From an uncultured Candidatus Saccharibacteria bacterium (GTDB lineage Bacteria; Patescibacteriota; Minisyncoccia; Phycocordibacterales; UBA9973): a stretch of DNA of 64,000 nucleotides. The stretch covers positions 6,110-70,109 of the forward strand of contig CAZKJE010000001.1 in NCBI GenBank assembly GCA_964553015.1. Reading direction: 5' to 3'. Within the stretch, counting starts at the first letter, position 1. Each line of letters starts with the position of its first letter. Both the position numbers and the translations under genes were made by a program. This document shows, one piece after another, positions 11,374 through 52,597 of this stretch. The notes beneath the pieces were generated by a model, which was given only the letters and a program-made list of their open reading frames with translations, ran no database searches and was not told where the DNA came from.

Positions 11374-12714
11374 TTAGTTTTTCTTAAGCCACTCTGGATC
11401 CTGTCGTACAAGAAGACTATATTTATTTCCTTGTTCTAATAAAATCTCTCCCACTATCCGCTCCATGCGCATGCCTTGCGAGCCTTTTACCAGTATGATG
11501 TCTCCATTTTTTATAAAAGTTTTTACAAAGTTTGCAGCTTCCCGCGAATCTAAAAACTCAAAAATACTTTCAGGATTCATTCCCGCCCCGCCTTCTTCGG
11601 GGTAAACTTCCAGCGCGCCTTCTTTTATGGATTTCGCGCGAAGACCAACTACAATCAAAATATCTGCATTTTCTTTAGCAATTTTACCAATATTTTTATG
11701 CGCTTCCACTGTATGCTTTCCGAGCTCCAGCATGTCGCCAAGTACTGCGATTTTCCTTCCCCGAGGGGAACCCTCGGGAAATTTTATATCTCCCAAAGTT
11801 TTGAGCGCGGATTCGCAGGCAAACGGAGAAGAGTTGTACGTATCGTCAATAATCAAGCTTTCTTTTTTCCCTTTTAAGAGGCGCATCCTCCCCGGAGGAA
11901 CATCATAATTTTTAAGCGAATCAGCAGCCGAAAGCATATTGAATTTCAGTCCGTAAGATAAGGCGAGAGCCGCGAGCGAGGCGTACACATGATTCCTGCC
12001 AAACACTCCTTCGATGGCGACGGGTACGCTTCTGCCCTCTTCGTCAACACGAAACACGACTCCTTCCGGAATTCCATTTTTATCATAGGCAATACTTTTG
12101 CCAGATCCCAAAATATCCGCGCCTTCTTTGAACCCATACGTAACCACGAGGCATTTTGTCTTTGATTTCATTTCAAGCACAGATTCATCGTCACTATTCA
12201 ATACCAAAAGCCCCTCCGGCTTTAGGGTTTTTATAAGTTCGGATTTTTCTTCTATCAGGTGCTTGCGCGATGTAAAGAATTCTATATGCGCCGGAGTTTC
12301 CCCGATGGCAGTCATGATCACTGCATCAGTTTTGAGCCAAGAAGCAGTATCGCGCATATCATTCGGCTTGCCGACGCCGACTTCAAGGATAAGCCATTTA
12401 GGATATTTGTGAAGCCCAAAAGGACTAAGAATGAGCCATGCGCCTTTTAAAATATTTTGTATCCATGCGATAGGGTTGTTCCATCCATTTGGCAAGCCGA
12501 GGACAGTGAGCGGCAAACCCAACTCGCTGTTAAAACTTTTCTCGCTTTTTCGAACATAAGAAATTTTTGAAAGCACGGCGTATACGGCATCCTTGGTGGA
12601 AGTCTTGCCGACCGAGCCGGTGATGGCTATAACCTTAGGCTTATACCTCATTAAGACGAGCTTGGACTCTGCCTTCAGAACACAAGCTAATGTTTTTTTG
12701 AAAATTGGTTTCAT
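11374..12714 (-). CDS. murF: UDP-N-acetylmuramoyl-tripeptide--D-alanyl-D-alanine ligase
   Basis: Mur ligase P-loop ITGSVGKTSTKD. 446 aa. Sits in dcw-cluster context next to ftsI. Confidence 0.8.
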   Translation of the reverse strand: MKPIFKKTLACVLKAESKLVLMRYKPKVIAITGSVGKTSTKDAVYAVLSKISYVRKSEKSFNSELGLPLTVLGLPNGWNNPIAWIQNILKGAWLILSPFGLHKYPKWLILEVGVGKPNDMRDTASWLKTDAVIMTAIGETPAHIEFFTSRKHLIEEKSELIKTLKPEGLLVLNSDDESVLEMKSKTKCLVVTYGFKEGADILGSGKSIAYDKNGIPEGVVFRVDEEGRSVPVAIEGVFGRNHVYASLAALALSYGLKFNMLSAADSLKNYDVPPGRMRLLKGKKESLIIDDTYNSSPFACESALKTLGDIKFPEGSPRGRKIAVLGDMLELGKHTVEAHKNIGKIAKENADILIVVGLRAKSIKEGALEVYPEEGGAGMNPESIFEFLDSREAANFVKTFIKNGDIILVKGSQGMRMERIVGEILLEQGNKYSLLVRQDPEWLKKN

Positions 12715-37916: not shown

Positions 37917-38005
37917 AGGCTTATTGTAGCATATATACCTAAAAGAAAAAAATGTTTAACACCGAGTGTTGAACAATTTTTAATAAAGCTATATAATAGA
38001 AGCAA

Positions 38006-38671
38006 ATGAGAAACATAAAAATAGCGCCTGGTGAATATTACCACGTTTTCAATCGTGGAATGAGCAAGCAAACAATTTTCCATGATAATCGTGATCGAGT
38101 GCGATTTCTTTTTTTAATTTTATACTTTCAATCCCCTCTTATTCTGCAAAACATAGGCCGTTCTATAAAATCATTTGTTCAACACTCGGTGTTTAACATT
38201 GATCAAGAAATTATGCAGACAATAATCAAGGGTAGATTCGTAGAACTTACTTCTTTTTGCCTGATGCCGAATCATTTTCATTTAATTATAAAAGAGGTTG
38301 AAGAAAATGGTATAGCTAGATATATGCAAAGAGTCTTGAATAGTTATACTAAATATTATAATACAAAATACAAAAAATCAGGGCATCTTTTTCAGGGTCC
38401 ATATAAAGCCGTTCACGTAAAAAATAATAATCAACTTTTATATTTATCTTCATATGTTCACAGAAATCCGAGAGAACTAAAAGATTGGTTTAATAAAGAA
38501 GATAGTTATGAGTGGTCAAGCTATAGAGATTTTGTGAAAAATAACAGATTTAAAAAATTGCTTGTTTTTGATATTATACAGGAGCAATTTAAAAACAAAG
38601 AAGAATACGACCACTTCGTAAAAAGCAGCACAGCGAAATTATTAAAGGAGGAATTAGATTGGATAAGTTAA
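38006..38671 (+). CDS. tnpA: Y1 (HuH) transposase, IS200-like/REP-associated tyrosine transposase
   Basis: YHVFNRG N-terminal motif, HuH motif LMPNHFHLI, catalytic Tyr context SYVHRNP. 221 aa. Confidence 0.7.
   Translation: MRNIKIAPGEYYHVFNRGMSKQTIFHDNRDRVRFLFLILYFQSPLILQNIGRSIKSFVQHSVFNIDQEIMQTIIKGRFVELTSFCLMPNHFHLIIKEVEENGIARYMQRVLNSYTKYYNTKYKKSGHLFQGPYKAVHVKNNNQLLYLSSYVHRNPRELKDWFNKEDSYEWSSYRDFVKNNRFKKLLVFDIIQEQFKNKEEYDHFVKSSTAKLLKEELDWIS
38177..38197. repeat. REP-like hairpin copy (inverted orientation) inside the transposase ORF
   Basis: GTTCAACACTCGGTGTTTAAC is the reverse complement of the flanking repeat with a 1-nt difference. Confidence 0.6.
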
Positions 38672-38698
38672 ATTGTTTAACACCGAGTGTTGAACAAT

Positions 38699-39076
38699 CT
38701 ATTTAAATAAGTTCGCAAAAAAAGAGAAGAATCCCGACAGCGGAGACTTTTTTGGGGCTTCAGCTGGTTTCTGGTCTTCTACCACTACTATCATCTGCTC
38801 TCCTTCTTTTGCCAAACCGTAATTTTCGCGGAAAAATGCTTCTTTGCCCTCTTCGGTGTTTAAGCTTTCTATATCCAGTTCCAGTTTTTCTTTTTTATCC
38901 CGAAGCGCAGTAACTTTATCTTCAACTATTTTTTTATTATTTCCTGTTTCTTCCATTTTATTCCAAAACTTAAGTACGCTCCACGCAAATATCAATATCA
39001 AAATACCAAGAATAATCAAAACCGGCTTAGACTCTGCTACTTTTCTCCAGTTTATTTTTCGCTCGTAATTTCTCAT
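38699..39076 (-). CDS. Septum formation initiator (FtsB/DivIC-like)
   Basis: Single TM plus coiled coil, then EAFFRENYGLAKEGEQMIVV, a typical DivIC C-terminus. The ORF runs to 39208 but the Met at 39076 is the likely start. Confidence 0.5.
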   Translation of the reverse strand: MRNYERKINWRKVAESKPVLIILGILILIFAWSVLKFWNKMEETGNNKKIVEDKVTALRDKKEKLELDIESLNTEEGKEAFFRENYGLAKEGEQMIVVVEDQKPAEAPKKSPLSGFFSFFANLFK

Positions 39077-39209: not shown

Positions 39210-39250
39210 AAAAACGACTAGGCAAGAAATCGTTTGGCCTAGTCGTTTTT
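39210..39250 (-). terminator. Rho-independent terminator after lepA
   Basis: aaaaacgactaggc-loop-gcctagtcgttttt, a 14-bp stem. The lepA stop codon lies in the 3' arm. Confidence 0.5.
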
Positions 39251-41089
39251 ATTGCCAGTACGCATCATCTTTAGGAATACATCTTGAGGAATGTTTACTT
39301 TGCCTCGCTCCTTCATTTTCTTCTTGCCTTTTTTCTGCTTCTCGCGAAGTTTCATCTTGCGGGTGATGTCGCCTCCGTACATATGCTGGGTAACATCTTT
39401 TTTCATACCGGACAGCGAGCGCGAAGAAATGATGCGCCCGAACGCTTTGCCTTGGATTTTCATGGTAAACATCTGACGCGGCAATAAACCTGCAAGCTTG
39501 GATACCGCATCCTCGGCTTCCTCTTCGGCGCGCTTTTTGGAAACCACTCTGGAAAAAGCCGGAACTAGTTCATCAGCGACGAGTAGATCCAAACGGGTGA
39601 CATTGGCCTCCCGCATTTCACCTATTTCATATGAAATAGAACCATAGCCGGAGGAAACACTTTTTAATTCATCAAAGAAATTCCGCATCAGCTCGCGCAA
39701 GGGCATTTTTACAGATACAATGGCACGATTGCCTGCCTGCCGGCCAGACAGGTCTCCGAAATTGTCCGTCTCGCCTATTTCTCCCTCATGGTCAAATAAA
39801 AGCTGCATGATGTTTCCTACGTATTCTATCGGAGTAATTATTTTTAAATTTACCCAAGGCTCAAATACGGTATCTATGTTTCCGTCGTCTGGAAAAAAGT
39901 ATGGCGAATATATTTTTTCTTTTTTGCCACTTATTAAAAGCACTTCATAAGTTATAGACGGCGTGGTGATGACGAGTTCCAGATTGAATTCTCTTTTTAG
40001 CCTTTCAGTAATAATTTCCAAATGCAGCATGCCGAGGAATCCGCAGCGGAATCCTTTGCCGAGAGAGCCGGAGGCTTCTTCTTCATAAGAAAATGCGGAG
40101 TCTGATAATTTTAATTTGCCCAAAGCCAGTTTTAATTCCGCAAAATCGTCCGCATCTTCTGGAAACACAGAGGCCCAAACCACAGGCAGAGGCTGCATGT
40201 ATCCCGGAAATGCCGGCAGCGGATTTTTAAACATGGTGATAGTGTCTCCGACGGAAGCTATGCCGGGCTTTTTTATGCCGGTAACTATATAACCTGTCTC
40301 TCCGCTATTTAAAGAATCTCTCGGAGTTTCTTCCGGAGAAAACGTGCCGACCTCCAGCGCTGAAAATTTTTCACCGGAAACTGCAAAAAGCAGCGTGTCT
40401 CCTTTTGCTACTTTTCCATCAAGCACCCTCACAAACACTATCACTCCTCTATGATTTGAATACTTGAAATCAAAAACGAGCGCTCTTAAAATGTTTTCGC
40501 CGTGGTGTGTTTCTTGGGGTTCCGGTACACGCTTTATGACTTCCTGCAATAGGTTTTCCACCCCCTCTCCTGTGCGTCCAGAAACAAGCAGTATGTCTTC
40601 CGGAGAGCAGTTTAAAAGCTTTACCACCTCTTCTTTTACGTCTTCTACCCGAGATAGCGGCGAATCTATCTTGGAAAGCACGGGAATGATTTTAAAGGGC
40701 TCCTCGCCCCGCCCAAGGCGGGGCAAGCGCGCCAGAGCAAGCGTGGTAAGGGTTTGAGCCTGCACACCCTGCGTAGAGTCTATGAGCAATATAGAGCCTT
40801 CCACGGCCTTTAGGGCGCGAGAAACCTCATAGGAAAAATCTATGTGTCCAGGAGTGTCTATAAGGTTTAAAATATACTTTTCCTCATTCATTTCGTACTC
40901 CATCCGCACGGGCTGCATCTTGATGGTAATGCCTCTTTCTCGCTCCAAATCCATAGAATCTAGAACTTGATCTCGCATTTTACGCGTTTCTATGGTGTGG
41001 GTAATTTCAAGCATTCTGTCGGCCAAGGTGCTCTTGCCGTGATCAATGTGCGCAATTATTGAAAAATTTCTGATGTGTTTTAGGTCCAT
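39239..41089 (-). CDS. lepA: Elongation factor 4
   Basis: N-terminus MDLKHIRNFSIIAHIDHGKSTLADR, EF4 domain order and the unique C-terminal domain. 616 aa. Confidence 0.9.
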   Translation of the reverse strand: MDLKHIRNFSIIAHIDHGKSTLADRMLEITHTIETRKMRDQVLDSMDLERERGITIKMQPVRMEYEMNEEKYILNLIDTPGHIDFSYEVSRALKAVEGSILLIDSTQGVQAQTLTTLALARLPRLGRGEEPFKIIPVLSKIDSPLSRVEDVKEEVVKLLNCSPEDILLVSGRTGEGVENLLQEVIKRVPEPQETHHGENILRALVFDFKYSNHRGVIVFVRVLDGKVAKGDTLLFAVSGEKFSALEVGTFSPEETPRDSLNSGETGYIVTGIKKPGIASVGDTITMFKNPLPAFPGYMQPLPVVWASVFPEDADDFAELKLALGKLKLSDSAFSYEEEASGSLGKGFRCGFLGMLHLEIITERLKREFNLELVITTPSITYEVLLISGKKEKIYSPYFFPDDGNIDTVFEPWVNLKIITPIEYVGNIMQLLFDHEGEIGETDNFGDLSGRQAGNRAIVSVKMPLRELMRNFFDELKSVSSGYGSISYEIGEMREANVTRLDLLVADELVPAFSRVVSKKRAEEEAEDAVSKLAGLLPRQMFTMKIQGKAFGRIISSRSLSGMKKDVTQHMYGGDITRKMKLREKQKKGKKKMKERGKVNIPQDVFLKMMRTGNKND

Positions 41090-46620: not shown

Positions 46621-49392
46621 CTATAAAACTATGTTGATAAGTCGGTTTTTGACATAGATAACTTTTTTAATAGGCGAATTTTTTATATGCCTTTCTATAG
46701 TTTCATCTGCGAGAGCCTGATTCTTAATGTTTTCCTCTGTGTCCTCTGTGCTTATCATAAGTTCGGCGCGCACTTTTCCATTTATCTGCACAGCTATTTT
46801 CATTTCTTCATCAGTAATTTTATCGGCATCCCATTTCGGCCAACTGGAAAGATTTATAGACTTTTTCTCTCCGAGCATGCTCCATAATTCTTCTGCGATA
46901 TGTGGTGCAAACGGAGCCAGAATCTGCAGAAATTTTTTATAATCTTCTTTACTAATTTCGCCCTTATCCATTTCATTTACGAGGACCATCATGGAAGATA
47001 CAGCCGTATTAAATCGCATGTCTTCTATGTCTTCCGAAACTTTTTTGATCGTTTTATGTAGAAGTTTCTGAGGTTTTGGCACAGAAAAATTTGAACCGTG
47101 TCCTGACCCACTTCCAGCTAAAGCGGGCGAATTTTTCTGCTGCGAAAATTTTATCCCTATTCTCCAAACTTTTTCCAAAAATCTCCTAGGGCCTATCATG
47201 CTATTTGTACTCCAAGATACTGATTGGTCAAAAGGCCCCATAAACATTTCGTACAGGCGAAGCGTGTCTGCGCCGTAGGTTTTTATTAAATCATCCGGAT
47301 TTACTACGTTGCCTTTGGATTTAGACATCTTCTCTCCCTCTTCCGCTAAAATAAGCCCGTGCGAGGTGCGTTTCATGTATGGTTCGCTGGTCGGTACTAA
47401 TTTCAAATCATATAAAAACTTATGCCAGAAACGCGAATACAGCAAATGGAGCGTCGTGTGCTCCATGCCCCCGTTGTACCAGTCAACGGGCGTCCAATAT
47501 TTTAAATTTTTTTTGCTGGCAAATTCTTTATTATTTTTTGGGTCAGTATATCGCAAGTAATACCAGCTCGAGCCAGCCCAATTCGGCATAGTATCCGTTT
47601 CTCTTTTGGCCCTCCCCTTACACTTCGGACATTTTACATTTACCCACGACTTTATATCGGCAAGCGGACTCTCTCCATTGTCTGTAGGTTTATATTTTGC
47701 CACCTTCGGCAGAACTACCGGCAAATCTTTTTCGGGCACCGGCACCCAAGTATTTGAGCAAGGACTCCCCTTGCTCATGCAATAGATTAGGGGTATAGGT
47801 TCGCCCCAATAACGCTGGCGGGAAAAAATCCAATCGCGAAGCTTGAAAGTGGTTTTTTCTTTTCCGCCGACAAATTTTATGATTTCTTTCCTAGCGATTT
47901 GCGAATCCAGACCGTCAAATTTGCCCGAATTGATTAGTATTCCGTCTCCCGAATAAACTTCTTGCCCATTTATTAACTCAAGGGCACGACGATGAGAATC
48001 CGCAGTCAAGTTTTTCTTGAGTTCATCTTTTGTAAGCCAAATTACATCATGAATTTCTTTTTCTTCCTCTGTAATATTTTCACATTTATTATCCTGTAAC
48101 TCAAAAACCATAGTATGCGAATGCGCGTAGCGATTGACCCCCTTTGGAACATGGTAAAACTTACCATGTAATCGTCCTAAATTAGAAATTAACTTTAAAT
48201 TTATATATCCTGTTTCTTCTTTGATTTCCATCCGTGCAGCTTCTTCAGGTGTTTGATTTTTCTCAATGCCTCCCGTAATAAATGTCGTCCAAGCTACTTT
48301 TTTCCAACGCAATGCTATATATTTTTCTTCAGACCAGTGCTTAACAATAGCAATAATTGCATCTCTGTGTTCAATGGGCAGATCTTCCCTTATTTTCCCA
48401 GGTTCTGTGGTCTGAAAAAAAGACGGCTCAATCACTTGTCTTATCGGCAAATTATATTTTTTAGCAAATTCAAAATCGCGCTCATCGTGCGCAGGCACGG
48501 CCATTATCGCTCCGGTGCCGATTTCTGACATAACATATTCCGCTTCCCAAACAGGGATTTTTTCTTTGGTTGCCGGATTAGTGACATATCGGCCGGTGAA
48601 TTTATCTTTCTCTCCGGCAATGGCGACAAAAGTGGCACCAAAAATCGTATCCGGCCTAGTAGTAAAAATATCTATACTGCCTTCTTCTCCTGCAAATTTA
48701 ATCACTGCCCCATTTTTCTTCCCTATCCAATTCCTCTGCTGAATTTTTATTTTTTCTAAATAGTTAACTGTATCTAAATCCTTATCCAGCCGCTCTGCAT
48801 ACTTTGTAATTGCCAGCATCCACTGCTCTTTTTCTCGCTTTTCTGTGGGGTTACCGCAGCGTTCGCACATGCCATCTATCACTTCTTCGTTGGCTAGGCC
48901 GATTTTGTCTACTGGACACCAGTTTATTTCAGTTTTGCTTTTATAAGCCAGACCTTTTTTATAAAATTGTAAAAATATCCATTGCGTCCATTTGTAATAT
49001 TTTGGATCGGTAGTATTTATTTCTCGCGACCAGTCAAAAGAAAAACCGAGAGCCTTGAGTTGTCGTCTAAACGTGTCAGTGTTTGTTTTAGTAACTTTTG
49101 TCGGATGAATGCCAGTCTTGATGGCATAGTTTTCCGTTGGTAATCCGAAGGCATCCCAGCCTATCGGATAAAGCACATTGTACCCTTCCATCCGGCGTTT
49201 GCGGGAAATGATGTCCATCGCAGTATTGGAGCGTATATGCCCCACATGAAGCCCCGAACCGGACGGATAAGGGAATTCTATCAAGCTATAAAATTTCGGC
49301 TTTTTAGAATTATCTTTTACTTGATAGATTTTATTTTTCTCCCATTCTTTCTGCCATTTTTTTTCGATTTTTAAATGGTTATATTCTGTCAT
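46621..49392 (-). CDS. leuS: Leucine--tRNA ligase with an inserted Nudix-like domain
   Basis: HVGH, the CP1 editing domain (TTRPDTIFGATFVAIA, GTGAIMAVPAHDERDFEFAKKYNLPI), KMSKS. Residues about 323-482 form an extra domain with the Nudix box GGIEKNQTPEEAARMEIKEETGY. Confidence 0.9.
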   Translation of the reverse strand: MTEYNHLKIEKKWQKEWEKNKIYQVKDNSKKPKFYSLIEFPYPSGSGLHVGHIRSNTAMDIISRKRRMEGYNVLYPIGWDAFGLPTENYAIKTGIHPTKVTKTNTDTFRRQLKALGFSFDWSREINTTDPKYYKWTQWIFLQFYKKGLAYKSKTEINWCPVDKIGLANEEVIDGMCERCGNPTEKREKEQWMLAITKYAERLDKDLDTVNYLEKIKIQQRNWIGKKNGAVIKFAGEEGSIDIFTTRPDTIFGATFVAIAGEKDKFTGRYVTNPATKEKIPVWEAEYVMSEIGTGAIMAVPAHDERDFEFAKKYNLPIRQVIEPSFFQTTEPGKIREDLPIEHRDAIIAIVKHWSEEKYIALRWKKVAWTTFITGGIEKNQTPEEAARMEIKEETGYINLKLISNLGRLHGKFYHVPKGVNRYAHSHTMVFELQDNKCENITEEEKEIHDVIWLTKDELKKNLTADSHRRALELINGQEVYSGDGILINSGKFDGLDSQIARKEIIKFVGGKEKTTFKLRDWIFSRQRYWGEPIPLIYCMSKGSPCSNTWVPVPEKDLPVVLPKVAKYKPTDNGESPLADIKSWVNVKCPKCKGRAKRETDTMPNWAGSSWYYLRYTDPKNNKEFASKKNLKYWTPVDWYNGGMEHTTLHLLYSRFWHKFLYDLKLVPTSEPYMKRTSHGLILAEEGEKMSKSKGNVVNPDDLIKTYGADTLRLYEMFMGPFDQSVSWSTNSMIGPRRFLEKVWRIGIKFSQQKNSPALAGSGSGHGSNFSVPKPQKLLHKTIKKVSEDIEDMRFNTAVSSMMVLVNEMDKGEISKEDYKKFLQILAPFAPHIAEELWSMLGEKKSINLSSWPKWDADKITDEEMKIAVQINGKVRAELMISTEDTEENIKNQALADETIERHIKNSPIKKVIYVKNRLINIVL

Positions 49393-49394
49393 TG

Positions 49395-50423
49395 TTATCT
49401 TACTGGTTTTGGGAACGGCGGGTATAGATCTTTATCTATAGTGCGAAGAAAACAAGTTCGTCCGGCTTCATGGCTCCACGATTCATTTGTGCCGCCGCCC
49501 GGATACGGGTAAGACACAGCCGCGTCTTTCTCGTAATACGGCATCATAGGAGGTATCCCTCCTCCGTAACTGTACTCCCTCCAGCCTTTCGGTATGGGTT
49601 GAGAAAAGGTAGCGCAAAGTTCAAACTGAAGAGAACCTTTCACTGCATACTCGTATGTTTTTCCTTTTTCAAATTCAGGTTCTACGGGCAAGGACCATCC
49701 GGAAATCGGGTCCGCCAGCTCGCTTAATGTTGCCGGTAATTTTTCTTTCTGCTGCCAGAAGTTAATTACCTGATATTGGATAGTCTGCAAATCATTTACT
49801 CTCCTGTCGTCTAAACGGAGAGATCTCTGCTTCATAGGACTGCCGAGAATAGCAAAACTGTAACTGACGGCCGTTATCACAATGACAATTCCCACGCCTC
49901 CCAAAATCATGCCGAGTTTTGATTGTGTTTCTTCTTTGGCTTTAAGATTACGTACATAGTAAAAACCTACAAGTCCGGCCACTATTAATACAGTTATAAC
50001 TTTATAAATAAATCTTGAAGTTATTTCTCCGGAAATAAAATACCTGACAAGCGTAACGAGATCGCCAGCGATAACAAGAGAAGAAAGAAAAAGAATAATA
50101 TATATCACCCATTTTTTAAACATCTCGTCGATCTGCCCCAAATACATCTTTGAAAATTTATTCCAAAAATAAGATATTGTGAGGAATATCGGAAAAACTA
50201 TTATGAGGGTTGCGAGCGCCGTGCGGATACCTTCATATTCGTACGTAGAATATCCGTATTGATAACTGGAATTTAAAACATCGGGAAAACGCTTGTTCAA
50301 TGTTTCAAAAACAAGATTTAGAAAAGATACGACCGAAGTTATTAAGGTTATTAATACCCCCAGACACAAGAAAAAGAACCCGACATTAAACTTTGAACTT
50401 ATAACGTTTGTTTGTGTTTCCAT
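49395..50423 (-). CDS. Hypothetical membrane protein with a C-terminal extracytoplasmic domain
   Basis: Five to six TM helices then a roughly 130-aa soluble domain. No motif recognised. Confidence 0.35.
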   Translation of the reverse strand: METQTNVISSKFNVGFFFLCLGVLITLITSVVSFLNLVFETLNKRFPDVLNSSYQYGYSTYEYEGIRTALATLIIVFPIFLTISYFWNKFSKMYLGQIDEMFKKWVIYIILFLSSLVIAGDLVTLVRYFISGEITSRFIYKVITVLIVAGLVGFYYVRNLKAKEETQSKLGMILGGVGIVIVITAVSYSFAILGSPMKQRSLRLDDRRVNDLQTIQYQVINFWQQKEKLPATLSELADPISGWSLPVEPEFEKGKTYEYAVKGSLQFELCATFSQPIPKGWREYSYGGGIPPMMPYYEKDAAVSYPYPGGGTNESWSHEAGRTCFLRTIDKDLYPPFPKPVR

Positions 50424-50468
50424 GTCTATTATTATATCATATGTAAATTAGGCAACAATAGAGAATAT

Positions 50469-50849
50469 ATGCGGAAAAAATTCGAGAATTTTTCAAAAAA
50501 ATTGACTCGCTGGATTGGTTCGCCCCAGTCTATATTGGTGCACACTCTTTTTTTTGCGGGAATGTTAGGCCTGCGGTTATTTGGCATATCCTCTTCGGAT
50601 GTTCTGCTAATTTTAACAACTGTTGTATCCCTTGAAGCGATATATTTATCAATTTTTATACAAATGACGGTAAATCAGCATGCGCAGGAGCTGGAAGAAG
50701 TTTCTGAAGACATTGGAGAAATTCAGGAAGACGTGGAAGAAATTCAGGAGAACGTCGACGAGATTCAGGAAGACGTTGAGGATATTCAGGAAGAAATTCA
50801 GGATGAAGAAAATGGGCCGGTGCTGCCGGAACAAAATAAATCTATTTAA
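50469..50849 (+). CDS. Small 2-TM membrane protein (DUF1003-like) with an acidic heptad-repeat tail
   Basis: The ORF begins at 50412 and overlaps the upstream gene. The likely start is the Met at 50469. C-terminal EIQEDVEEIQENVDEIQEDVEDIQEEIQDEE. Confidence 0.4.
   Translation: MRKKFENFSKKLTRWIGSPQSILVHTLFFAGMLGLRLFGISSSDVLLILTTVVSLEAIYLSIFIQMTVNQHAQELEEVSEDIGEIQEDVEEIQENVDEIQEDVEDIQEEIQDEENGPVLPEQNKSI
50716..50805 (+). repeat. Tandem 21-nt coding repeat (4+ units) encoding the EIQEDVE heptad
   Basis: gaaattcaggaagacgtggaa / gaaattcaggagaacgtcgac / gagattcaggaagacgttgag / gatattcaggaagaaattcag. Confidence 0.7.
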
Positions 50850-51777
50850 CAGAGTGCCAAATAGCTGTATTAGCAAGCGGAATGATGCGACTGTTTGATC
50901 TTTCTAGAACGCAAAGCTCTCCCTGTTCTGTTTTTCCCTCAAAACTTTTCATCATATCTTCTAGCGCGTAGCCGAGAGATAGTGACGAAGAATCTATCGC
51001 GTACGAAGTTATAATTACAAAAAGCGGCTTATCAGAGAGAACTTTTTTTACTTGTGCAAGAAGTTTCGGGAGCATTTCTTCTATTTTCCAGACTTCGCCT
51101 TTTGGCCCCCTGCCAAATTTCGGCGGGTCCATGATAATCGCATCATATTTATTTCCCCTCTTTTCTTCCCTTTCTAAAAACTTTATAACGTCATCTTCTA
51201 TAACCCTCATAGGTGCAGGAGCAAGCTCAGCGTTTAATTGTTGGTTTTCCTTGGCCCAGTTCAAAGTCTGTTTTGAGGCATCTACGTGCGTCACTTCCGC
51301 GCCGGCCCGCAAAGCAAACAAACTTGCTACTCCGGTATAGCCAAATAAGTTTAAAAATTTCACTTGTCCGCCTCTGGCGGATTTTGCTTTTTTTATTTCA
51401 TTTTCTATAAAATCCCAGTGGCTCGCCTGCTCTGGGAAAAATCCCAAATGCCGAAAAGGCGTCGGGGTCGCCAAAAATTTAATGTCCCTATATTCCATCT
51501 CCCACTTAAAAGGACGGTCCTTAAGAGAGTTTCCCAAAGGACCGTCCTTGGATATAACCCAGCCCTTTTTTGCCCCCTGTTTTGAGCTCCAAAATTTTCC
51601 ATCTGCACTCTTCCACATTTGTTTAACACTCGGTGTTGAACATTTCGGCCAGACAGCATCTTCGTATGGGCGAATAAAAACATATTGCCCGAACCGCTCG
51701 AGCTTCTCTCCTTCGCCGGTATCTAAAAGCTCATAATCTTTCCATTCTTTTGAGTAAAAAAGTTTAATTTCTTTCAT
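50842..51777 (-). CDS. Class I SAM-dependent rRNA methyltransferase (RlmI/RlmK-like)
   Basis: N-terminal PUA-like region, methyltransferase motif I LNLFGYTGVASLFA, motif IV DAIIMDPPKF. 311 aa. Confidence 0.7.
   Translation of the reverse strand: MKEIKLFYSKEWKDYELLDTGEGEKLERFGQYVFIRPYEDAVWPKCSTPSVKQMWKSADGKFWSSKQGAKKGWVISKDGPLGNSLKDRPFKWEMEYRDIKFLATPTPFRHLGFFPEQASHWDFIENEIKKAKSARGGQVKFLNLFGYTGVASLFALRAGAEVTHVDASKQTLNWAKENQQLNAELAPAPMRVIEDDVIKFLEREEKRGNKYDAIIMDPPKFGRGPKGEVWKIEEMLPKLLAQVKKVLSDKPLFVIITSYAIDSSSLSLGYALEDMMKSFEGKTEQGELCVLERSNSRIIPLANTAIWHSVK
51621..51642. repeat. REP-like hairpin copy embedded in-frame in the methyltransferase ORF
   Basis: GTTTAACACTCGGTGTTGAACA has the same stems as the transposase-flanking repeat with an inverted loop. 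It encodes CSTPSVK. Confidence 0.6.
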
Positions 51778-51778
51778 G

Positions 51779-52597
51779 TTATATCAAAAATTCTATTACG
51801 TCGCCATCTTGCACTATATATTCTTTGCCTTCCGTACGCACCCAACCTTTTTCGCGGGCTTTGGCAAAACTTCCGGCTTCTATGAGTTGCACGTATGAGA
51901 CGACTTCCGCGCGGATAAATTTCTGCTGAAAATCGGTATGGATAGAACGGCCCGCAAAAGGCGCAGTTGCTCCGCGTAAAGTTGTCCAAGCCCGCGATTC
52001 ATCTTCTCCGGTGGTGAAAAAAGTAATCAAGTTTAATAAATCATATCCGGCATTAATTAAATTATCCAAACCCGTTCCAAACACAGGATCTACTTCTATA
52101 AAAGGGCCGGGCAATTTCGCCATAAAATCATTCTTTATATTTTCTGCTGCTTCTGATTTATTTAATACATAAAGTGTCGGCTTTTTTATCCCTGCCTGCT
52201 CCAGTTCAAAATTTATAACTTCAATATCGAACATGGGGTCTACTTTATCATGCACGTGAATGGTATTTGGATCTTCAAAAATTCGCACGACTTCAATGAT
52301 TGCGTCCACCTCGCGTATGTGGGATAGAAATTTATTACCGAGCCCTGCCCCCTCCGAAGCGCCTTTCACGAGTCCGGCAATATCTACAAATTCCACTACC
52401 GCGGGAATAGTTTTTTTAGATTTGGAAATTTCTGAAAGTTTGTTTAGTCTCTCGTCCGGTACAGGCACAATCCCCACCGATGGATCAATGGTACAAAATG
52501 GATAATTCTCCGCCGGCACGCCTTTTTTAGTAAGTGCATTAAAAAGCGTGGACTTTCCCACGTTTGGCAGACCGACGATTCCGATTGACAGCGACAT
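51779..52597 (-). CDS. ychF: Ribosome-binding ATPase YchF (short form)
   Basis: G1 GIVGLPNVGKSTLFNA, G3 FVDIAGLV, TGS domain (TGEDESRAWT...GRSIHTDFQQKFIRAEV). At 272 aa the helical insert is reduced. Confidence 0.8.
   Translation of the reverse strand: MSLSIGIVGLPNVGKSTLFNALTKKGVPAENYPFCTIDPSVGIVPVPDERLNKLSEISKSKKTIPAVVEFVDIAGLVKGASEGAGLGNKFLSHIREVDAIIEVVRIFEDPNTIHVHDKVDPMFDIEVINFELEQAGIKKPTLYVLNKSEAAENIKNDFMAKLPGPFIEVDPVFGTGLDNLINAGYDLLNLITFFTTGEDESRAWTTLRGATAPFAGRSIHTDFQQKFIRAEVVSYVQLIEAGSFAKAREKGWVRTEGKEYIVQDGDVIEFLI

Follow-up and report, generated by a model that had tools for sequence, protein, structure and literature searches.

An in-frame REP-like hairpin in a methyltransferase gene of an uncultured Candidatus Saccharibacteria bacterium and its relation to a Y1 transposase unit

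Hairpin D and its host gene

The stretch of DNA analysed here, which we call the window, comprises 64,000 nucleotides of contig CAZKJE010000001.1 (assembly GCA_964553015.1, positions 6,110 to 70,109) from an uncultured Candidatus Saccharibacteria bacterium. It contains a short hairpin inside a methyltransferase gene and, at a distance of 13 kb, a small transposase unit that carries three further copies of the same hairpin. The solo copy, termed hairpin D, lies at 51620..51642 and reads TGTTTAACAC TCG GTGTTGAACA on the + strand; it is 23 nt long, with a 10-bp stem that includes one T.G pair and a 3-nt loop. The 22-mer pointed out in an earlier, sequence-only reading of this DNA (GTTTAACACTCGGTGTTGAACA) maps to 51621-51642 (+). 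With up to 3 mismatches the motif was found at four sites only in the 64 kb, i.e. at 37953-37975, 38176-38198, 38674-38696 and 51620-51642, and the number of matches expected from 100 dinucleotide shuffles of the window is none. A covariance model built from the hairpin family gave the same four sites with scores of 36-42 bits (38.6 bits, E ~2e-6 for hairpin D). With the filters off and E-values up to 10 the model showed no further sites in the window except one 10-bit match (E = 8.7). Rfam identified only tRNAs in the window, with no weak match in 51300-51900, and a scan of viral contigs for the motif returned a single match, which is an unrelated phage iteron array.

The host gene (50842..51777, - strand) encodes a 311-aa class I S-adenosylmethionine-dependent methyltransferase of the PF10672 superfamily, 2IGT-type. 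At hairpin D the sense strand reads TGT TCA ACA CCG AGT GTT AAA CAA ATG, i.e. C46-S-T-P-S-V-K-Q-M54 in frame. This nine-codon segment C46-M54 (CSTPSVKQM, 27 nt, 51616..51642, - strand) replaces six ancestral codons, TLSxKE. The sequence-only reading had placed an in-frame CSTPSVK in the N-terminal region of the gene, and this was borne out (C46-Q53 of the 311-aa open reading frame, ORF). The Pfam and NCBIfam matches of the protein are confined to residues 136-251, and hairpin D falls in the N-terminal, non-catalytic part. In the AlphaFold2 model the confidence is low over residues 39-90, the N-terminal region that holds the site, and a surface-loop position of the segment is putative.

The same reading had called the gene RlmI-like and essential, and neither label is supported. 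The nearest solved relative is 2IGT, an uncharacterised protein of A. tumefaciens (phmmer E = 4e-64; Foldseek TM score 0.80, 39% identity). The NCBIfam RlmI model gives 50.7 bits against a cut-off of 712 and covers the catalytic core only, as does RlmKL, likewise far under its cut-off. The RlmI structure 3C0K is 19% identical to the protein, and no equivalog-level RlmI match with the PUA and EEHEE N-terminal domains was found for it.

When folded as single-stranded DNA, hairpin D reaches -5.5 kcal/mol on the + strand and -4.2 on the - strand, i.e. the antisense strand folds slightly better as DNA. The mRNA-sense RNA has a C-A mismatch and folds no better than shuffled sequences (z = -0.97). 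A structured-RNA reading of copy D was ruled out on this ground. This folding behaviour favours a DNA-level origin and disfavours a selected mRNA structure in this copy.

A Y1 transposase unit with three copies of the hairpin

The other three copies belong to an IS200-like unit of 765 bp (37935..38699, + strand), located between 2-hydroxyacid dehydrogenase and DivIC-like genes. It consists of a left hairpin, a Y1/HUH transposase ORF of 221 aa (38006..38671, + strand, Pfam Y1_Tnp) with an internal hairpin, and a right hairpin. Left hairpin A (37953..37975, + strand; TGTTTAACAC CGA GTGTTGAACA) is 18 nt from the left unit end and 53 nt before the start codon. Internal hairpin B (38176..38198, + strand; TGTTCAACAC TCG GTGTTTAACA) occupies nt 171-193 of the Y1 ORF and encodes F-V-Q-H-S-V-F-N, and right hairpin C (38674..38696, + strand; TGTTTAACAC CGA GTGTTGAACA) starts 3 nt after the stop codon and ends 3 nt before the right unit end. 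The stems of D are identical to those of the two flanking copies and its loop is reverse-complemented (TCG vs CGA), so that the inverted loop described earlier was confirmed by the motif search and by direct sequence comparison. The nearest relative of D is hairpin B, with 27 of 29 nt identical including the flanks CATT...TT. A comparison of the methyltransferase copy with the Y1-flanking copies of one genome, aimed at concerted evolution, showed identical stems in the window and a difference of 2 nt in the L213/L214 pair.

The Y1 protein matches Pfam Y1_Tnp with 42 bits (cut-off 23) and the NCBIfam model NF047646 REP_Tyr_transpos with 35.6 bits (cut-off 80). All 31 homologues compared have H90-F-H92 and Y150 (Y-V-H-R-N-P) unchanged. 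With a profile built from the family, ISDra2 TnpA gave a weak match (E = 0.009, residues 57-143), and searches of PHROGs and a single-sequence search of the PDB gave no matches.

The syntenic contig L213 has the 2-hydroxyacid dehydrogenase gene directly beside the DivIC-like gene, i.e. the site is empty. The window without 37935-38699 aligns gap-free to L213:16300-16400, there is no target duplication, and the empty-site junction reads ...GTA[G/A]CATAT followed directly by TATTTAAATAA.... L213 carries a Y1 unit of its own at another location, beside a tRNA gene. This seamless empty site defines the Y1 gene and its hairpins as a 765-bp unit with presence/absence polymorphism of the IS200/IS605 type.

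The layout hairpin, Y1 gene with internal hairpin, hairpin was seen in ~16 independent loci from metagenomes and genomes, with Y1 proteins that are 56-81% identical. In 16 loci the internal hairpin is at a fixed position of the ORF (+170/171 from the start codon), and the hairpins of one element have loop types in common (TGA/TCA in L106 and L168, TTA in L185, CGG in L108). Among 120 homologues the residues encoded by a paired stem position of hairpin B co-vary (K-F 64, Q-L 18, Q-F 11, K-L 2). The loop residue is S (TCG) in 69 and R (CGA) in 33, and it alternates even between close relatives; the equivalence of CGA with R and of TCG with S was confirmed on the DNA of L213 and of the window. 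Distant Y1 homologues have an equally long [LM]K.G.F segment at the place of the internal hairpin.

Flanking hairpins are present in every Y1 locus examined. The pair in the window is direct, with the same CGA loop and the same T.G asymmetry, and the loop orientation varies among loci; for a near-perfect palindrome, orientation is a matter of the 3-nt loop alone. A comparison of the left ends of the elements revealed no conserved sequence upstream of the left hairpin, neither a terminus nor a target.

The 3' arm of hairpin A supplies a TTGAAC/TTTAAC hexamer 17 nt upstream of a TATAAT (37966-38005; also in L179, L163 and L213), and this TATAAT, as read from the sequences, is conserved in several elements. 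The left hairpin thus likely overlaps the Y1 promoter at a -35-like hexamer. In L179, L163 and L213 the Y1 unit abuts what appears to be the same tRNA gene downstream (judged by eye, without a tRNA finder), which suggests one conserved location of the unit plus at least one relocation.

Alleles at the methyltransferase site

The METHYLTRANSFERASE site was compared in the 120 closest homologues of the methyltransferase, which are 70-81% identical to it and come from Paceibacteria/Nomurabacteria. Between the conserved W-x-K and W, 59 of the 120 are short, with the 6-aa loop TLSxKE; 45 have a 9-aa hairpin segment (CSTPSVQQ. and variants), and the remaining 16 have a 9-aa segment that is not palindromic (TLTKEVKEA type). 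Genomes yielded outgroups from Sphingopyxis, Chloroflexia, Levyibacteriota and others, all of which, like the solved 2IGT, have the short form, so that the short form is ancestral and the hairpin segment derived. With the hairpin segment, 27 nt stand where there were 18, and the protein is 3 aa longer. The sequence-only reading had proposed to look in an alignment of orthologues for an indel of 7-9 aa at this position; a length difference is indeed found there, in the form of 9 residues replacing 6 and not as a clean insertion of 7-9. It had also proposed a check of related genomes for presence/absence of the element, and the site is polymorphic among them. An event of this genome it is not, as the allele is common to 45 of the 120 closest orthologues.

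It is conspicuous that the palindrome is maintained at the level of DNA. Thirteen hairpin-type alleles were read as DNA and all are palindromic, with 8-10 of the 10 stem pairs formed, and the codons TGT, ACA, CCG, AGT and GTT show no synonymous variation among them. In these 13 alleles 90% of the stem cells pair, and 4 of the 10 pairs are changed on both sides. The covariation score was reached by 0 of 500 shuffles, and structures slid by 1-3 columns drop to 27-45% pairing; a stem mismatch is retained in 9 of the 13. The L206 allele (TGTCCAACAC CGA GTGTTGGACA) encodes CPTPSVGQ and has 10/10 pairs. The L205 allele (TGTTCAAAGT TCG ACTTTGAACA) encodes CSKFDFEH, also with 10/10 pairs, two of them doubly compensated. 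A further allele, TGTACAACAC..GTGTTCTACA, encodes CTTPSVLQ with 9/10 pairs, and TGTCAAACAC TCG GTGTTGGACA encodes CQTLGVGQ with a flipped loop; the loop is flipped in L001 as well.

As a control, a short-type allele encoding TPSVKE uses the non-palindromic codons ACC CCT TCA GTA, which means that the peptide does not dictate palindromic codons. The sequence-only reading had named orthologues with the same peptide segment and no DNA motif as the finding that would speak against a mobile element. Every CSTPSV-type orthologue with readable DNA carries the palindrome, and the short-type allele is the sole 'TPSV' free of it. In these alleles the palindrome is the conserved object and the peptide a by-product. 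The non-palindromic 9-aa class has T-P/K-x-V-Q/K in common with the hairpin class, is of equal length and matches it at 13 of 27 nt in L016, so the TLTKEVKEA-type segment is, we infer from the sequences, a decayed hairpin copy.

In a neighbour-joining tree calculated without the variable region the hairpin allele is patchy, with 26 Fitch parsimony steps vs 36 for shuffled labels, and the nearest relatives of the window on this tree are short-type.

The methyltransferase gene contains a second in-frame palindrome at 51510-51549, with 13-bp perfect arms at 51510-51522 (AAGGACGGTCCTT) and 51537-51549 (AAGGACCGTCCTT) and a 14-nt spacer. It encodes KDGP-LGNSL-KDRP, and its RNA folds with -27.5 kcal/mol (z = -3.8). 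In orthologues the arms vary and remain fully complementary (AAGAACGGTTCTT, AAGGACTACCCTT; a 21-bp arm in L013), and the loop GGGGAAACTCTCTT is conserved. This palindrome occurs in 18 of the 120 orthologues, independently of the first hairpin (5, 40, 13 and 62 orthologues in the four combinations of the two sites), and in 2.1 Mb of local loci it was found in the methyltransferase gene only. Two orthologues carry an extra hairpin of the TGT..ACA family (L206:380-408 and L212:10249-10277; e.g. TGTCAAACAC CCG ATGTTTGACA) ~30 residues downstream of the first site; the variable region in which it lies is the one that also holds the second palindrome. At L081:1788-1810 a perfect palindrome of unrelated sequence, ACTTGGACAT CCG ATGTCCAAGT, lies in frame in yet another variable loop, the third in this protein; its translation is NLDIRCPSG, and the loop is 2 aa longer than that of the window. 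L081 is without a Y1 gene.

Occurrence of the hairpin in other genes

Metagenome contigs were scanned with TGTTNAACACNNNGTGTTNAACA, and at least 158 hairpins were found on at least 120 contigs. The family consensus is TGTT[C/A]AACAC-[TCG/CGA]-GTGTT[G/T]AACA. Among the matches listed, stop-free ORFs of 150 aa or more contain 77 of 158 hairpins (49%), compared to 77% for random positions on the same contigs; in other words, hairpin copies are depleted from genes yet far from excluded. The first 80 loci have 1 hairpin in the methyltransferase, 9 within Y1 genes, 14 beside Y1 genes and 82 elsewhere. The host ORFs that score above the NCBIfam cut-offs are IleRS, LigA, PheT, ArgRS, MetRS, MurB, MnmA and RsmI. 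Further hosts are LysRS, glycosyltransferases, a truncated CCA-adding enzyme and PyrF, the last identified by eye only. The copies are translated in three frames as peptides of 8-9 residues, namely xV[QKE]H[SR]V[LF]N, C[SL]T[PL][SG]V[EKQ][QH] and [ML]LNT[ER]C[LS]T.

Of 106 copies, 76 have CGA or TCG as the loop, and in 83 there is Watson-Crick pairing at the two unconstrained positions of the stem. The consensus TGTTNAACAC NNN GTGTTNAACA is bordered by A-rich and T-rich flanks that are not conserved. Beyond the 23 nt no conserved flank, tag or target motif was found, and the two flanking pairs show a weak excess of complementarity (67 observed vs ~48 expected). Inverted doublets with an exact 27-nt period are found inside ORFs. 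There are also overlapping arm-loop-arm-loop-arm triplets with a 14-nt offset (L153:2079/2093, L163:3663/3677 and L164:6397/6411), as well as duplications of an arm within the methyltransferase segment (CQTQCQTLGVGQ, CQTLGVGQVGQ; P0074 and P0090). Triplets and arm duplications alike are suggestive of slippage, or of template switching, on the palindrome.

LysRS of L128 carries the hairpin as 24 nt cleanly inserted between DGS and GKIQ, and orthologues 82-92% identical to it are without the insertion. This OB-fold (oligonucleotide/oligosaccharide-binding fold) loop is hypervariable in Staskawiczbacteria and relatives, with inserts of 5-40 aa in approximately half of 120 orthologues (P0241-P0360). 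Two other inserts of the LysRS loop were read as DNA and are not palindromic, i.e. only some of the inserts are the hairpin, and our claim is for this reason restricted to the present hairpin family. A replacement without length change also seems to apply to RsmI, and likewise to the Y1 gene itself.

Origin of the intragenic hairpin

We consider it probable (approximately 0.8) that hairpin D is a solo copy of a REP-like (repetitive extragenic palindromic) family, the master copies of which are the subterminal hairpins of an IS200/RAYT-like (REP-associated tyrosine transposase) Y1 element of Paceibacteria. Membership in the family, its link to the Y1 unit, the presence/absence polymorphism of the unit and the dispersal of the hairpin into many genes are established here, and the same holds for the ancestral state, the polymorphism and the DNA-level constraint at the methyltransferase site. 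Hairpin D is an old, patchily distributed intragenic REP-like element. By analogy the Y1 protein would be its mobilising enzyme: TnpA of IS200/IS605 and TnpA-REP recognise a folded hairpin of single-stranded DNA, and cut and rejoin the DNA alongside it (PMC2817692, PMC3479197).

In the same manner, we propose, hairpins folded in single-stranded DNA are recognised by the Y1 enzyme, which by cutting and rejoining beside them may copy or exchange them. As the genomes have almost no intergenic space, surviving copies would be those in tolerant protein loops, in a stop-free frame and with a length that keeps the frame, and these copies would then be translated as peptides of 8-9 residues. In the methyltransferase, the ancestral K-TLSxKE-W loop would have been replaced long ago by CSTPSVKQM. 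In many lineages the allele would have kept its palindrome by way of compensatory changes and loop flips, and in others it would apparently have decayed to TLTKEVKEA-type sequence. The pairing of the stem may be kept by selection, by hairpin-for-hairpin exchange or by template-switch correction of quasi-palindromes. For the replacement footprint, the frequent loop flips and the fixed internal copy, exchange, re-insertion in the opposite orientation and template switching are candidate explanations. A mechanism of the Y1 type fits since the hairpins are the ends of the unit, co-vary with the protein lineage and occur as identical 23-mers at unrelated sites.

Several points weigh against this interpretation. 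No transposition event into the methyltransferase has been seen, and 18 nt were replaced, which is not a simple insertion and is predicted by no known Y1 mechanism. The compensatory changes could reflect a function of the hairpin at the methyltransferase site. In related neighbourhoods the family is confined to the methyltransferase and the Y1 unit: across 818 kb that surround 58 orthologous or Y1 loci, the model matches only the hairpin site, the second site ~30 residues downstream in two orthologues, and the Y1 unit of L213. With one solo copy in the window, a genome probably has few copies by the standard of REPs. The empty-site comparison involves one genome (L213), and part of the allele DNA was chosen for variant-looking peptides and is not a random sample. 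Finally, the orthologue tree is star-like, so that a single origin with recombination, repeated gain, loss by recombination with short alleles and poor resolution are not separable on it.

Could CSTPSVKQ simply be ancestral coding sequence that resembles the transposase hairpin by coincidence? The peptide is widespread among orthologues and one short-type allele encodes T-P-S-V by chance, but the outgroups and the solved homologue have the 6-aa form, no chance matches are expected, and the same 23-mer is present in dozens of unrelated genes. Moreover, the 13 alleles lack synonymous variation, their stem compensation and loop inversions alter the peptide and keep the palindrome, and when hairpin-type peptides in non-palindromic codons were looked for in the orthologue DNA, none were found. 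Coincidence therefore has a negligible chance of being correct. The preservation of stem pairing by compensatory changes at the orthologous site is also what a selected cis-element would display, i.e. a folded DNA or RNA kept in the methyltransferase and in the Y1 gene for a function, be it a regulatory or marking site of the Y1 protein or a pause or stability signal. The internal Y1 copy, which has a fixed place in 16 loci and loop types corresponding to those of the terminal hairpins, points in this direction, as do the upstream hairpin that overlaps a -35-like hexamer of the likely Y1 promoter and the second in-frame hairpin with covarying stems in the methyltransferase gene. A selected element is nevertheless distinctly unlikely, given that 59 of 120 orthologues are without the hairpin and 16 have apparently decayed copies, that the mRNA-sense fold in the window is no better than shuffles (z = -0.97), that 9 of the 13 methyltransferase alleles keep a stem mismatch, and that host genes and positions are highly diverse. 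Template-switch correction of quasi-palindromes, moreover, can produce compensated changes without selection.

The hairpin may also have spread without a transposase, by homologous recombination or gene conversion between lineages combined with template switching during replication, in which case the Y1 element would merely carry it. The patchy allele on the tree (26 Fitch steps vs 36 shuffled), the independent assortment of the first site and the second palindromic site, and the replacement of sequence instead of an insertion are all in agreement with such a process. Recombination, however, cannot put identical 23-mers in the unrelated LysRS, IleRS, LigA and MurB, and the Y1 transposase is the sole protein consistently linked to the family, with relatives that act on such hairpins (PMC2817692, PMC3479197). 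We regard this explanation as very unlikely and prefer the solo copy of a transposase-linked family.

A bolder form of the Y1 hypothesis can be formulated, which we find doubtful. The Y1 enzyme might swap or overwrite stretches of coding loops with a hairpin cassette of 23-27 nt, in either orientation and in essential genes. The family would then be largely intragenic, the in-gene hairpins would be maintained sites of action, and the copy in the enzyme's own ORF would perhaps be autoregulatory. If true, this would be a regular source of protein loop variation in genome-reduced bacteria.

Relation to known palindromic elements

The family resembles the REP/RAYT systems (REPtrons) of Proteobacteria in that a dispersed short palindrome also flanks a Y1/HUH gene, in that hairpin and protein appear to co-evolve (the three hairpins of an element have common loop types), and in its tandem inverted doublets, which have a 27-nt period in the present family (PMC2817692, PMC3479197). 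In contrast to REPs, the present hairpins are without a GT(A/G)G or CGTC head and have an almost perfect 10-bp stem with a 3-nt loop, and the flanking copies do not seem to be consistently inverted, as far as a 3-nt loop defines an orientation. RAYT proteins are marked by the motif NP(L/V)(R/K)xG adjacent to the Tyr and by an N-terminal Thr that is conserved (PMC2817692). The present Y1 protein does not have the full motif, as it reads Y150-V-H-R-N-P-R-E-L-K with N-P only, nor does it have the Thr, reading Y12-H-V-F-N-R-G. A further difference is that the present gene holds a copy in its own ORF, the unit is polymorphic in an IS-like manner, about half of the listed copies are intragenic and the copy number is probably low. 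REPs are expected in tens to hundreds per genome; the window has 1 solo copy in 64 kb, yet at least 120 metagenome contigs carry the family. The RAYT association proposed from the sequence needs correction, as the transposase fails several RAYT-defining features and the unit behaves as IS200-type.

Intragenic REPs have been described that lie entirely within ORFs of known proteins, in frame, often as dimers and sometimes at the same site in orthologues (PMC3733652). The present hairpins share the in-frame reading within ORFs, the dimers and the common site in orthologues. The known intragenic REPs belong to GTAG- or CGTC-tagged superfamilies of Proteobacteria, Opitutus and others and are a minority among REPs (PMC3733652), whereas the present family is untagged, its hosts are Patescibacteria, and roughly every second listed copy is intragenic.

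Rickettsia palindromic elements (RPEs) are, according to Ogata et al. 2000 as reported in PMC3733652, selfish palindromes located in frame in housekeeping genes, which are left intact. Here too an in-frame palindromic repeat leaves the genes intact and adds a peptide in a tolerant part of the protein. The present element is shorter, at 23-27 nt, is tied to a Y1 transposase and resides in Paceibacteria/Patescibacteria, another phylum. To our knowledge, RPE-1 type elements are ~100-150 bp long and have no known transposase. The sequence-only reading had compared hairpin D to RPEs that colonise coding sequences; the comparison holds in so far as the same family is in frame in many genes, while transposition into the methyltransferase site itself is something we infer.

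With IS200/IS605 elements (IS608, ISDra2) the Y1 unit has in common the single small HUH/Y1 gene, subterminal hairpins at both ends that lie on one strand (the left hairpin ~18 nt inside its end), a length of ~0.7-0.8 kb and a seamless insertion without terminal inverted repeats or target duplication. Unlike these elements, it encodes a protein of 221 aa instead of ~130-150 aa with a RAYT-like Y-x-H-x-N-P tyrosine motif, and its two end hairpins hardly differ from one another or from the third copy, which lies within the ORF. The dispersal of solo hairpins is not a classical IS200 feature either. The full text of the literature was searched for the sequence, the peptides and the topic and no description was found, though the coverage is incomplete and this is not a proof of absence. 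In-frame palindromic repeats are already known as RPEs and intragenic REPs, and the present variant is new and outside those families.

Patescibacteria have tiny, packed genomes in which selfish DNA would be expected to be scarce, and a transposase-linked hairpin appears to persist inside their genes by being translated, in housekeeping hosts that include aminoacyl-tRNA synthetases, DNA ligase and MurB. Selfish DNA that lives in protein-coding genes is known from Rickettsia; the present case would be the second, independent of it and much broader in extent, and as a candidate enzyme is attached to it, the mechanism can be tested in vitro. Inserts of 8-9 residues and loop flips would appear as indels and apparently hypervariable loops in conserved marker proteins, and may disturb alignments, phylogenies and structure predictions for this phylum. 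Current REP/RAYT or IS200 models account neither for the fixed internal copy in the transposase nor for the replacement footprint.

Other palindromes and neighbouring features

Palindromes that do not belong to the family are found in other genes of the window. In LepA (ORF 39239..41089, - strand) there is a GC-rich in-frame palindrome at 40703-40727, within an AT-rich genome, with the sense sequence CTTGCCCCGCC TTG GGCGGGGCGAG and 10 of 11 arm positions complementary. It lies within an extra segment RLPRLGRGE, which we take to be absent from E. coli LepA; in the L213 orthologue the segment has diverged to RLPRDRQGE. In LeuRS (ORF 46621..49392, - strand) the palindrome TGAGCAAGGA CTC CCCTTGCTCA at 47754-47778 corresponds to a 6-aa insertion (MSKGSPCSN vs NTCGT) in the zinc-knuckle region, as compared to the L002 orthologue. 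Counting every hairpin that has a loop of 3-5 nt and 9 or more of its 10 stem pairs formed, the whole window contains 30, vs a mean of ~8.5 in shuffled sequences, i.e. an excess of ~3x, and several of them are inside long ORFs (e.g. at 11757, 16745, 42542 and 58167).

Next to the methyltransferase gene, a small membrane protein is encoded by the ORF 50412..50849 (+ strand), which has a weak DUF1003 match under the Pfam cut-off. At their 3' ends this ORF and the methyltransferase gene have 8 nt in common, and the ORF contains a 21-nt tandem coding repeat (50692-50808) that encodes an acidic, (E/D)(I/V)QE-rich tract.

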